Virus record (IMG/VR): IMGVR_UViG_2778261316_000009
From: a virus
Taxonomy: Duplodnaviria > Heunggongvirae > Uroviricota > Caudoviricetes
Strand: one strand, 5' to 3'
Length of the DNA stretch: 36,248 nt
Below, piece by piece: positions 1,125-6,166 of this stretch. Made by a program: the position numbers and the translations under genes. Below the pieces are notes generated by a model. The model saw only the letters and a list, made by a program, of their open reading frames with translations, was not told the origin of the DNA and made no database searches. Position 1 is the first letter of the stretch, and every line of letters starts with the position of its first letter.

Positions 1125-1247
1125 ATGCACGGTAATTCTGAAATGCAAAAAATCAACCAAACCAGCGCAATGCCTGAAAAAACTGACGTTCACTGGAGTG
1201 GTCGGTTTAGCGTTGCACCAATGCTCGATAGGATGTACCGTTTTTGA
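1125..1247 (+). pseudogene. dusA: truncated 5' end of tRNA-dihydrouridine synthase A, interrupted by the prophage
   Basis: translation MHGNSEMQKINQTSAMPEKTDVHWSGRFSVAPMLD matches the DusA N-terminus as I recall it, then diverges at about 1230 into RMYRF-stop. Confidence 0.7.
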
Positions 1248-1372
1248 AAAACAAGTAGTTATACACTTTGTGGGAGCCTATTGGGAACCCGGTGTTTTCA
1301 TTTCAAGGTGTAATCCATGCGGGGCATCAGAATGAGATATAATGAGATTTTTAGTGTTCCGCTTGAGAGTCT

Positions 1373-1909
1373 ATGATGCTTACCCTGGACGAGATAGGTC
1401 AATCTGTACGTAACAATATCCAGTTGATTATTGATCATGTCGGCTTACCTCTTGCTGTTGGTCCGCTCAGTGATGATGATTACAAGATTCTGTGTGGTGG
1501 CTATGGTGAGCTTGAATGGGACTATGCGTTAAGCACCTATGGCAACTCCAGAGAAAAGTATGAGTTCTGCATAAAACTTGTTCAGCAAGGTCGGGTTCAG
1601 GGAATACCATCAGGAGCAGCAATTTGTGTTTATGGGGTTGAAGAAAACATCTTTCGTATCCATATGATCGAAAGGTTTTCTAGAGAAGATGAATCTCACC
1701 CATTGAAAGGGCGCATGGTTTTACTCACTCTTATGAGTGCTTTTATATTTTGTAAAGCTGTTGAATGTAAAGTTGTCCACATTGTAGAGCCAGTACCAGA
1801 ACTGGTGCAGTATTACGAGTCTTTTGGTTTCCGCATGGAACAGTGCGGTTATGTGATGTCTGCAGTCATTGATGAGCTGCAGGATATCTTTCTTAAATTT
1901 GCTCAGTAG
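1373..1909 (+). CDS. hypothetical cargo protein, possibly GNAT-fold acyltransferase-like
   Basis: 178-aa ORF, moderately AT-rich, opposite in orientation to the early-left operon; C-terminal pattern (KGRMVLLTLM ... LVQYYESFGF) is reminiscent of GNAT motifs A/B, a weak call; a TATAAT hexamer lies at 1338-1343. Confidence 0.5.
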   Translation: MMLTLDEIGQSVRNNIQLIIDHVGLPLAVGPLSDDDYKILCGGYGELEWDYALSTYGNSREKYEFCIKLVQQGRVQGIPSGAAICVYGVEENIFRIHMIERFSREDESHPLKGRMVLLTLMSAFIFCKAVECKVVHIVEPVPELVQYYESFGFRMEQCGYVMSAVIDELQDIFLKFAQ

Positions 1910-2014
1910 GTATAGACGAGAAGGGGCTACAAATTGTAGGATACCCGTCCAGATTACCTTAAAGGTACATCTATGGCAGTCGTTTTGTGCTTAAACTACT
2001 AAGAAACGATGTCA

Positions 2015-2035
2015 CCAATCGACATGATCGATTGG
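2015..2035. promoter_or_regulatory. perfect 8-bp inverted repeat (CCAATCGA-N5-TCGATTGG), candidate operator upstream of the small ORF at 2106
   Basis: read directly from the sequence; further short inverted repeats follow between 2040 and 2095. Confidence 0.3.
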
Positions 2036-2105
2036 CATAAGTTAGCTAAACAAGCTAGCTTTAAAGAGAGGGTTAGAGACGCCTTTACTGTCTCGGGAGT
2101 TTTCT

Positions 2106-2279
2106 ATGAAAGATCAAAAAGCAACCAAGCCACAGGTTAAGTTCGACACAATGAAAGCATTCGCAGGTATGGGTGCTGCTGTTGAAGTTCTGATGAAGGC
2201 TGCTCCTAATGCGTTCACTCACGCTACTGTCTCTGGTAAAGAGCAGCAGGGTAAGCTTCGTCGTCGCAAAGCAGCATGA
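2106..2279 (+). CDS. small basic hypothetical protein (57 aa), absent from the ORF track because it is under 60 aa
   Basis: ATG at 2106 preceded by GGGAG; translation MKDQKATKPQVKFDTMKAFAGMGAAVEVLMKAAPNAFTHATVSGKEQQGKLRRRKAA; followed directly by a terminator. Confidence 0.45.
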   Translation: MKDQKATKPQVKFDTMKAFAGMGAAVEVLMKAAPNAFTHATVSGKEQQGKLRRRKAA

Positions 2280-2297: not shown

Positions 2298-2325
2298 GAA
2301 AACCCGCCTTTAGGCGGGTTTTTTC
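2298..2325. terminator. bidirectional rho-independent terminator between convergent genes
   Basis: CCCGCC-TTTA-GGCGGG hairpin flanked by an A-run upstream and a T-run downstream. Confidence 0.65.
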
Positions 2326-2347: not shown

Positions 2348-2608
2348 CTATTTGCCTGTTCTGACCTGTTCCCACTCGATACGTCCTTCTTCTCGTCTTT
2401 TGTCTATGTATTCCGCAAGATCCTGAATATTGATGCAACGTTTTGCTTTTTGTGATGTGCCGATGCGATATGTTGGAACGGGCAACTTACAAGCGTTTGC
2501 TTTTGCTTCTGCCGTGGCTGGACTCATGCCAAAGTACTTTTGGCTAACTGCTGAGAGTTCAATGTTAGGGGTATTGAATTCAGCCATCAGTAAAAACAAG
2601 GTGTTCAT
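2348..2608 (-). CDS. PrtN-family DNA-binding protein (putative excisionase or transcriptional activator)
   Basis: N-terminus MNTLFLLMAEF ... DLAEYIDKRR resembles the pyocin activator PrtN family; the longest ORF extends to 2635, the third Met (2608) is chosen by family resemblance. Confidence 0.6.
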   Translation of the reverse strand: MNTLFLLMAEFNTPNIELSAVSQKYFGMSPATAEAKANACKLPVPTYRIGTSQKAKRCINIQDLAEYIDKRREEGRIEWEQVRTGK

Positions 2609-2644
2609 AATTTTCTCCATCAAAACCGGCTGCACCCGGGAAAA

Positions 2645-5825: not shown

Positions 5826-6166
5826 AAAAGGAAGCCCTCACCGTCCGGCGATTATTGAGTCAATTACATTTCCATAAATGCCCCCGTAGGGGCGGTTAGT
5901 TTCTCCACAAAACAGAGAAGAACACCTGCGGTGGCAGCCGCCCGGATGGATTGGGTTATGAGCCCGTCGTCCGGTGATGCTCTTCTCTGTTTTGTAAAAA
6001 GGACGGTACCAGCCGGAAGCAAGGGTACAAGCTGGTACCGCCAAGACTACACACAGCATAAAGTTGTGGTGCCGGGTGCCTCCCGGTGCCTGGCGAAGGT
6101 TGCACACCAGGCGGGTGGGTATCCACAGAAGGTCGACTATCAGCCTCAACCTTAACCCGCGTGCGC
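5826..6166. other. GC-rich, highly structured non-coding element (candidate ncRNA or miniature palindromic insertion)
   Basis: no credible ORF (overlapping Arg/Pro/Gly-rich frames on both strands); 15-bp perfect inverted repeat 5907-5921 / 5981-5995 plus at least four further hairpins (5880-5893, 6005-6039, 6072-6086, 6088-6112). Confidence 0.35.

Follow-up and report, generated by a model that had tools for sequence, protein, structure and literature searches.

Cassette architecture and genomic setting

The caudoviral sequence IMGVR_UViG_2778261316_000009 from IMG/VR (36,248 nt; the whole of this stretch is referred to here as the window) carries close to its left end two plus-strand genes, which an earlier note made from the sequence alone had described as prophage-end cargo. 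The first, orf178 (WP_000956557; mEp460_023; phrog_4350), is an open reading frame (ORF) at 1373–1909 and encodes an acidic protein with a predicted GNAT fold. Translation most likely begins at the second ATG (1376), which is better spaced from GAGAG (6 nt) than the first and is used by RefSeq and all homologues, so the likely coding sequence is 1376..1909 and the product has 177 rather than 178 amino acids (aa). The second gene, orf57 (2106..2279; WP_000654815; mEp460_024; phrog_2741), follows a Shine-Dalgarno sequence GGGAG at 2095–2099 and encodes a basic, mostly disordered protein of 57 aa with a central helix and the C-terminal sequence RRRKAA. The two are separated by a structured spacer of 196 nt (1910..2105), and the region of the window at approximately 1291–2325 is, with near certainty, a self-contained cargo unit, or "moron", of about 1 kb belonging to an mEp460-like prophage.

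The window begins in the Escherichia coli chromosome, where 1–762 encodes a DUF2713 protein (yjbM-like). The 5′ remnant of the host dusA gene follows on the plus strand (1125..1229, attL side); it retains the first 35 codons (MHGNSEMQ...APMLD), translates as MHGNSEMQKINQTSAMPEKTDVHWSGRFSVAPMLD, and then diverges and reaches a stop at 1245. In RefSeq, the stretch of strain AH04 equivalent to 1125–1229 is an incomplete tRNA-dihydrouridine synthase pseudogene, after which come two hypothetical proteins, a PrtN-family protein, a 3′-5′ exonuclease, and lambdoid early genes. Genes 023 and 024 of phage mEp460 encode both proteins at 100% identity and lie between its integrase/attP region and a PrtN-like gene. 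Based on the dusA remnant, the gene order in AH04, and the identity with mEp460, the cassette is located at the left (attL) end of a lambdoid prophage of the mEp460 type that is integrated in dusA, a kind of integration that has been described previously (PMC4482086).

Pairing and distribution of the two genes

Loci with similarity to orf178 were collected across genomes, viral contigs, and metagenomes. An orf57 homologue was located 78–197 nt downstream and on the same strand in 133 of the 134 loci with an orf178 homologue (39–100% identity), and the single locus without one is a contig that ends 55 nt after the orf178 gene. The small gene is thus an obligate partner of orf178, and the statement of the earlier note that no antitoxin-like partner is obvious is not supported. 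The pairing extends to Shewanella (at the dusA junction), Photorhabdus, Xenorhabdus, and a distant branch recovered by profile search (hmmsearch E ~1e-63 for the upstream proteins), and distant branches at approximately 35–45% identity also carry the small gene. Both the cassette and the pairing are considered near-certain.

The orf178 family is small, with 93 representatives at E ≤ 1e-3 among 1.84 billion proteins. Of 5426 complete E. coli genomes, 358 contain the gene, always at ≥ 99% identity, and strains of O157:H7 and O111:H8 are among them. The cassette also occurs in Salmonella, Enterobacter, and Photorhabdus, and its distant branch in Klebsiella and P2-like prophages. Annotation of the neighboring genes distinguished at least six genomic contexts. 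Besides the dusA-attL end adjacent to the PrtN gene, as in E. coli, Salmonella, and Shewanella, the cassette is located directly after antiterminator Q of three families and before methylase, holin, and lysozyme genes, which is the slot of stx in Stx phages; inside tail or baseplate modules (Photorhabdus and one viral contig); in the P2 interval from gpA/DinI to the portal gene, beside the PADLOC candidate PDC-M03 (distant branch); beside the integrase of a satellite-like element at fis-dusB (Klebsiella); and in a few contexts that do not resemble phages, one of which adjoins Cas3 in Xenorhabdus. The P2 gpA-gpQ interval has been validated as a hotspot of anti-phage systems (PMC9122126). Across unrelated temperate elements, the two genes travel together among cargo and defense slots. 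The earlier description of the genes as accessory cargo of the prophage end, oriented opposite to the early-left operon, is supported. A search of PADLOC-DB v2.0 returned no match for orf178, orf57, or their P2-type and Klebsiella relatives.

Two further observations concern these locations. Genes for a HipA_C kinase and a HIRAN protein, matching PDC-M03, are located directly upstream of one P2-type cassette in the gpA-gpQ hotspot (L226, 583–2195). In addition, 4 of the 363 places at which orf178 was found in E. coli are on plasmids, for example NZ_CP126947.1 154960–155493 (a 204-kb plasmid of APEC E18005), and these copies may belong to phage-plasmids or to a prophage integrated in a plasmid.

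Replacement by a Panacea module and asymmetric loss

At the same dusA-attL site, 208 complete E. coli genomes encode a Panacea-domain protein (PF13274, E 1.8e-18) and a 128-aa protein in place of the GNAT-fold protein, while orf57 is kept. In E. coli AR_0085 (L135, 1986–3187), this allele consists of a 190-aa Panacea protein, the 128-aa protein, and orf57, and occupies the slot that corresponds to 1291–2279 of the window; the exchange has its left junction near 1290 and its right junction at 2093, 13 nt 5′ of the orf57 start codon. The small gene and the terminator behind it were identified in 562 complete E. coli genomes, and because the two alleles together account for about this number (358 + 208), orf57 is always preceded by either the GNAT or the Panacea module. 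Among 80 viral contigs fetched by orf57, 61 carried the GNAT gene, 19 carried the Panacea module, and none carried anything else. Panacea domains are promiscuous antitoxins of type II systems that neutralize many unrelated toxins (PMC8832971), and the 128-aa protein encoded directly after the Panacea antitoxin is presumably the cognate toxin. This protein had no match in Pfam or PADLOC, and no relationship was found between its gene and orf178.

The two genes of the cassette also differ in how they are lost. GNAT genes truncated at the 5′ end occur together with an intact small gene (L132/L133 and L228), and in P2-like prophages a C-terminal GNAT remnant of 65 aa (cluster P0266, 584 contigs) is followed by an intact partner gene of 59 aa (L228, 3225–3680). 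Among the loci examined, no intact GNAT gene was seen without the small gene. Such an asymmetry is the pattern expected if the GNAT protein is harmful without its partner and the partner is harmless alone.

A divergent GNAT-fold protein

Sequence searches with orf178 and orf57, whether by single sequence or by profile, returned nothing informative from Pfam, NCBIfam, PADLOC, or PDB. The orf178 protein had no match at E ≤ 1 in Pfam or NCBIfam, including the curated GNAT models, and none in PADLOC or among PDB sequences; ten of its distant relatives likewise had no Pfam match at E ≤ 0.01. In PHROGs, both proteins fall only in families of unknown function. UniRef labels some members of the orf178 family "N-acetyltransferase", and the protein records seen for the cassette are almost all labeled "hypothetical protein". 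On the other hand, an AlphaFold2 model based on 30 homologues reached a predicted local distance difference test score (pLDDT) of 89.4 and a predicted template-modeling (TM) score of 0.87, and the 50 best Foldseek matches in the PDB were exclusively GNATs (E ~3e-6, TM score 0.5–0.58), including Gcn5, SpeG, AtaT, TacT3, and KacT. The model contains the GNAT core in the order beta1-alpha1-alpha2-beta2-beta3-beta4-alpha3-beta5-alpha4-beta6. The GNAT-like character proposed in the earlier note is therefore supported by the predicted structure, although no curated profile recognizes it.

The proposal had been based on the motif YYESFGF, described as the end of the protein. The motif occupies residues 147–153 of 178 and is thus not terminal, as it lies 25 residues before the C-terminus, but it aligns with a GNAT motif. 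In a weak profile alignment with E. coli YjaB (hhalign, E 0.037), the elements beta4-alpha3-beta5-alpha4 fall in the expected register, with HMIERF...HPLKGRM opposite HMDALF...GCGVGRM and QYYESFGF opposite GFYKKVGF. Residues Y148, G152, and F153, which align with motif B (FYKKVGF) of YjaB, are invariant among 30 sequences of the family. YYESFGF is therefore a probable GNAT motif B, in which Y148 would hold the position of the motif-B tyrosine (the general acid in alpha4, within Y-x-x-x-G-F), and the further polar residues that are invariant in the same 30 sequences suggest a constrained active site. The pyrophosphate loop between beta4 and alpha3 is different. In place of motif A (Q/R-x-x-G-x-G/A), S-H-P-L-K-G stands opposite R-G-C-G-V-G of YjaB with only the last glycine kept, and the loop consists of 13 residues with an insertion and an invariant H109-P-L and G113. 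The family is strongly acidic, with an isoelectric point (pI) of 4.3–4.9 in 29 of the 30 aligned members (5.5 in the truncated P0050) and a net charge of –10 to –18.

A small basic partner

The orf57 protein has a pI of 10.5 and a net charge of +7.6. Modeled alone with AlphaFold2 it reached a pLDDT of 60.6, a low confidence, and is predicted to be mostly disordered with one helix at residues 23–32. Neither Pfam, NCBIfam, nor PADLOC contained a match. Nonetheless, the protein is under purifying selection, with a ratio of nonsynonymous to synonymous substitution (dN/dS) of 0.05–0.35, and is more conserved than the GNAT protein of the same cassette (e.g., 91% versus 66% in L015). Conserved positions are F13, T15, G23, L29, A32, P34, E46, G49, and the C-terminal alanine, within the signature F-D-T...M-G-A-A-V-E-x-L-x-K-A-A-P...Q-G-K...K-A-A-COOH, and no lysine or N-terminal residue is invariant across the family. 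The tail RRRKAA, a conserved Ala-Ala after basic residues, resembles degrons of ClpX, among which ssrA (...ALAA), RseA (...VAA), and MuA (RRKKAI) have been tabulated (PMC8138137).

Synonymous divergence is also several-fold lower in orf57 than in orf178 at the same loci (L066–L096), for example 0.05 against 0.59 and 0.36 against 0.81. Mosaic recombination accounts for this difference in the E. coli cases, and the rest could reflect constraint at the RNA level.

A structured RNA between the two genes

The spacer is predicted to form a chain of stem-loops on the plus strand. A hairpin immediately after the orf178 stop (H0, 1913–1929) is followed by H1 (1954–1968, TTACC-N5-GGTAA), a helix at 1981–2008 with a differing sequence in every lineage, H2 (2015–2035), H3 (2039–2061) with covarying arms, and the short H4 (2076–2094), which abuts the Shine-Dalgarno sequence. 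H2 is the perfect 8-bp palindrome, with arms CCAATCGA at 2015–2022 and TCGATTGG at 2028–2035, that the earlier note had pointed out as an operator. Taken alone it is mildly unusual and weak evidence, as the window contains approximately 10 perfect 8-bp inverted repeats compared to approximately 3.5 in shuffled sequences. The repeat gains weight because it is conserved in divergent copies, being kept in 17 divergent enterobacterial spacers.

Across these 17 spacers, 89.8% of the alignment cells in helices 1–4 are able to pair, compared to 20–44% when the 3′ partners are slid by 1–3 columns, and none of 500 shuffles matched the observed pairing or covariation score. Helix 3 contains four pairs with compensatory changes on both sides, and RNAalifold independently recovered helices 1–3. 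The minimum free energy of the spacer is –58.5 kcal/mol (z –2.8). Among cells that are not Watson-Crick, G·U outnumber A·C (47 versus 13 overall and 19 versus 3 in helix 2), although these cells are non-independent events and at the level of pairs 11 have G·U and 7 have A·C. As G·U pairs work only in the sense-strand RNA, this bias suggests that the structure is kept at the RNA level. In the L085–L096 clade, the left arm of helix 2 is CTGATTGG, which breaks the DNA palindrome while the RNA stem is kept through two G·U pairs.

A covariance model of helices 2–4 (R1) scored 68–98 bits on the plus strand in Salmonella, Enterobacter, and other copies outside the training set, and had no match in the Photorhabdus, Xenorhabdus, Shewanella, and Panacea-allele loci searched, a scan that did not include P2-type loci. 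The RNA element has so far been detected only in the Enterobacteriaceae branch with long spacers. Rfam contained no match to 1910–2105, and only sub-threshold, terminator-like matches were returned, at 2228–2331.

These features bear on the alternative that the two genes are expressed independently and that orf57 binds the palindrome as the operator of its own promoter. The right arm of the palindrome does overlap a –35-like TTGGCA/TTGGTA with TAnnnT 18 bp downstream in all enterobacterial copies, the arms are conserved around a variable center at a constant 7-bp spacing, and orf57 is basic. However, the consensus scan called no promoter in the spacer, and an internal sigma-70 promoter for orf57 (TTGGCA-18-TAGCTT) was set aside after its putative –10 proved to be the 3′ arm of helix 3, which covaries with the 5′ arm. 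The excess of G·U over A·C and the left arm of the L085–L096 clade favor a hairpin over a DNA site, orf57 has no recognizable DNA-binding fold, and the palindrome is absent, with orf57 kept, from the Panacea allele and from Photorhabdus, P2-type, and Shewanella copies. The operator model thus seems improbable. The palindrome itself is present, but it is unlikely to be a DNA operator and is better read as helix 2 of the stem-loop series. Because the stem-loops are kept through G·U pairs and compensatory changes, orf178 and orf57 look like one operon with a structured intercistronic RNA, and not like two genes each with its own expression signals, as had been suggested.

Cassette boundaries and neighboring genes

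The left edge of the cassette with its upstream signals (1291..1375, plus strand) begins where homology with the Panacea-type allele stops, near 1290, and ends in a 5′ untranslated region with GAGAG. The hexamer TATAAT is present at 1338–1343 as previously noted. Its occurrence is not above chance, with 4 copies in the window compared to 8.9 expected, and a consensus promoter scan found no –35 element for it. Its weight instead derives from its conserved position, as a –10-like hexamer (TATAAT, TACAAT, TAAAAT, or TAAACT) is located approximately 33–40 nt before the start codon in divergent enterobacterial copies. A promoter belonging to the cassette is therefore putative, given a hexamer that is conserved in position and lacks a –35. 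A box similar to ATCTTTTACAAC was also observed approximately 30 nt 5′ of the –10-like hexamer in most enterobacterial copies (L011, L015, L084, and L085), and reads GTTTTCATTTCAAGG in the window (1294–1308); it is too distant to serve as a –35 and may be an activator site or the cassette boundary.

The right edge is a strong intrinsic terminator at 2298..2323 (GAAAACCCGCC-TTTA-GGCGGGTTTTT), in which an 11-bp stem is followed by a T run, so that the terminator expected at 2298–2325 was recovered. It lies between orf57 and the convergent PrtN-family gene and is common to both. In other contexts, a terminator is likewise found 3′ of orf57, and the terminator of the preceding unit is often located just 5′ of the cassette, with the conserved box and the –10-like hexamer. 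The cassette thus has the features of a moron, namely its own terminator, a putative promoter, variable presence, and differing positions. No terminator-like site was predicted between 830 and 1726, and because none separates the dusA remnant from orf178, transcription that starts at the dusA promoter of the host may continue into the cassette in the lysogenic state.

The PrtN-family (excisionase-like) gene is the last of the early-left operon (2348..2635, minus strand; PF11112, E 3.5e-23; phrog_1300, excisionase). Its ORF stops in the window with TAG at 2348–2350, and the corresponding RefSeq coding sequence of AH04 (99.7% identical) reaches the position equivalent to 2327. In strain 13E0725 (L136, 3320–4354), orf57 and the PrtN gene are separated by an inserted gene for a CoiA-like nuclease (344 aa, PF06054), which is another sign of a variable cargo site at the prophage end. 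Finally, sRNA-17 is an ArcA-modulated small RNA of mEp460-like prophages in E. coli K1 (PMC7719688). Its 5′ part matches 6003–6023 of the window (plus strand) with one mismatch, and the part covered by its Northern probe had no match at ≤ 3 mismatches anywhere in the window, which seems to hold only a degenerate copy. The possibility that sRNA-17 is the structured spacer was rejected, as the 5′ part maps outside 1373–2279 and the probe region is absent.

Possible function of the cassette

Genomic locations, the Panacea swap, and the asymmetric loss incline us slightly towards a defense or toxin-antitoxin-like role for the cassette. More specifically, it may be a moron of this type composed of an acidic GNAT effector and a small, disordered, degron-tailed neutralizer, to which we would assign a rough probability of 0.45. 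The assignment of the individual roles, with the GNAT protein as the effector and orf57 as its labile neutralizer, is proposed more tentatively. The two proteins probably bind each other, given their complementary charge, the disorder of orf57 when modeled alone, and their strict linkage. Under this reading, a weak promoter belonging to the cassette would drive both genes as one transcript, and the host dusA promoter may contribute in this lysogen. The structured spacer would set the relative output or stability of the orf57 message, with putative roles in processing, stability, or translational control. The effector would be an acyl-transferase acting on a basic target, and orf57 may bind it via the central helix and hold it in check, while the RRRKAA tail, similar to those of ssrA and MuA, would make orf57 protease-labile. 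If an infecting phage, for instance, shut off host expression, orf57 would then be lost and the enzyme freed, in a toxin-antitoxin or abortive-infection mode. A further ground for a defensive role is that six of eight unknown loci from P4 hotspots are reported to have protected against phages (PMC13586616).

Several points weigh against this interpretation. Toxicity, defense, acetylation, and the binding of the two proteins are all predicted roles, based on sequences and models. The use of acyl-CoA by orf178 is putative and should not be assumed, because Q/R-x-x-G-x-G/A is replaced by S-H-P-L-K-G with an insertion in the coenzyme A loop. The degron reading of the orf57 tail is a resemblance, the asymmetric loss derives from three or four independent events that are all left-side deletions or swaps, and the persistence of orf57 behind the Panacea module could reflect an independent function that does not involve the GNAT protein. 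The architecture is also unlike that of known GNAT toxin-antitoxin pairs, with a downstream partner, a spacer of 78–197 nt, no ribbon-helix-helix (RHH) or DUF1778 protein, and no family match. In particular, the tRNA-acetylating toxin suggested by the earlier note becomes less likely, as the strongly acidic surface would argue against a tRNA target, in addition to the lack of an RHH/DUF1778 partner and of a canonical motif A; a basic protein or another cationic target appears more plausible.

An alternative, though an unlikely one, is that the cassette is a harmless enzyme-partner pair for lysogenic conversion, in which the GNAT protein modifies a small molecule or a protein of the host or phage by acylation, with neither toxicity nor phage exclusion, and orf57 is a dedicated substrate, activator, or targeting subunit whose basic tails anchor to nucleic acid or the ribosome. 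The structural neighbors would allow this, since N-terminal acetyltransferases of proteins (NatD, NatB, RimI, and Naa50) and polyamine acetyltransferases (SpeG) score equally to the toxins, and the combination of an acidic enzyme with a basic partner, the higher conservation of orf57 expected of a protein that touches a conserved cellular structure, and the presence of the cassette in the late operon after Q, a risky place for a toxin, all agree with it. However, the lack of an invariant lysine or N-terminal residue means that orf57 offers no evident constant site for an acyl group, it would be odd for the GNAT gene to be truncated so often with orf57 kept if the enzyme were the active principle, and the placement in defense and toxin-antitoxin hotspots and the Panacea swap fit defense better. 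A phage GNAT could instead inactivate a host immune protein by acetylation, for which the anti-CRISPR AcrVA5 is a precedent, with orf57 as a helper or regulator. Phage-encoded GNATs are common and one Xenorhabdus copy lies beside a Cas3 gene, but counter-defense genes are usually embedded in early operons rather than insulated from promoter to terminator, and this cassette occupies defense-cargo slots and is replaceable by a toxin-antitoxin module, which makes counter-defense quite improbable.

The roles may also be reversed, so that orf57 is the effector or toxin and is neutralized by the GNAT protein, through binding or acetylation, and by the Panacea protein in the other allele. YjhQ, the neutralizing partner in the TopAI (YjhX)-YjhQ pair, is presumably a GNAT. 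The small toxin YjhX (85 aa) and the 181-aa YjhQ that neutralizes it provide a precedent (PMC4666372), orf57 is the more conserved partner, and the broad neutralizing range of Panacea domains (PMC8832971) would suit such an arrangement. Nevertheless, intact orf57 is widespread behind GNAT remnants (the 65-aa remnant in 584 contigs and L132/L133), a state that would be lethal if the GNAT protein were needed. In addition, the degron-like tail is on orf57, although toxins are normally the stable partner, and the separate 128-aa gene after the Panacea antitoxin is the likely toxin of that allele, so that a reversal of roles is very improbable. It is rather doubtful, although somewhat less far-fetched, that orf57 is a constant, protease-labile adaptor coupling interchangeable effectors (the GNAT protein, or the Panacea antitoxin with its 128-aa toxin) to one conserved cellular cue or target, with a structured leader RNA tuning its synthesis. 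In a variant of this idea, the cassette would be a type of toxin-antitoxin system whose acyl-transferase and disordered mini-protein control one another through acylation.

Comparison with known systems and implications

In the GNAT toxin-antitoxin pairs TacT/TacA, AtaT/AtaR, KacT/KacA, and ItaT/ItaR, the toxin acetylates aminoacyl-tRNA, arrests growth, and is neutralized by its antitoxin. There, an RHH/DUF1778 antitoxin is encoded adjacent to and upstream of the toxin, whereas the partner here is a downstream 57-aa protein of another kind, and the two genes do not overlap but are separated by a structured spacer. The orf178 protein further differs from these toxins in its acidity, its degenerate motif A, and the lack of a match to GNAT models of Pfam, NCBIfam, or PADLOC. 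The PanA-PanT system (PMC8832971) is comparable as a prophage-borne accessory module that, in 208 complete E. coli genomes, sits exactly between the attL arm of dusA and orf57. The two are not homologous, however: the Panacea domain is missing from both cassette proteins, and no relationship links orf178 to the 128-aa gene. The TopAI-YjhQ pair (PMC4666372) can be likened by size, with a small protein and a neutralizing partner of approximately 180 aa, although its gene order is opposite and the small protein of the cassette persists without the GNAT protein, which argues against a toxin role.

The defense cargo of the P2 gpA-gpQ and P4 hotspots (old, tin, PARIS, and Rst; PMC9122126, PMC13586616) shares with the cassette a small insulated unit and a patchy distribution, and the distant branch (hmmsearch E 1e-63) is itself located in the gpA/DinI-portal interval beside PDC-M03. 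Unlike that cargo, the cassette is not among the PADLOC v2 models, and its role is read here from the genes alone. Lambdoid morons between Q and the lysis genes (e.g., stx) are similar in that the cassette follows three Q families, precedes holin and lysozyme genes, has its own terminator, and is variably present. In contrast to such morons, neither product is a secreted toxin or surface protein by family match (signal peptides were not specifically searched), and the cassette also occupies other slots.

No paper was found that mentions the accession numbers of orf178 or orf57, and the terms "GNAT" and "acetyltransferase" are absent from the main text of the two P2/P4 hotspot papers (PMC9122126, PMC13586616). 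The cassette is a module of two genes based on a GNAT protein, in which the partner, the gene order, and the RNA spacer are non-canonical and the function is hypothetical. It is common and absent from PADLOC, yet it occurs in slots where anti-phage and toxin-antitoxin modules have been found experimentally. The adaptor arrangement, if true, would represent a new modular architecture for prophage-borne immunity. Should the cassette serve in defense or addiction, it would be a GNAT-based addition to such systems, set apart by its unusual mini-protein partner and by an operon built around structured RNA, and some of the "dark" cargo in P2 and lambdoid hotspots would be accounted for.

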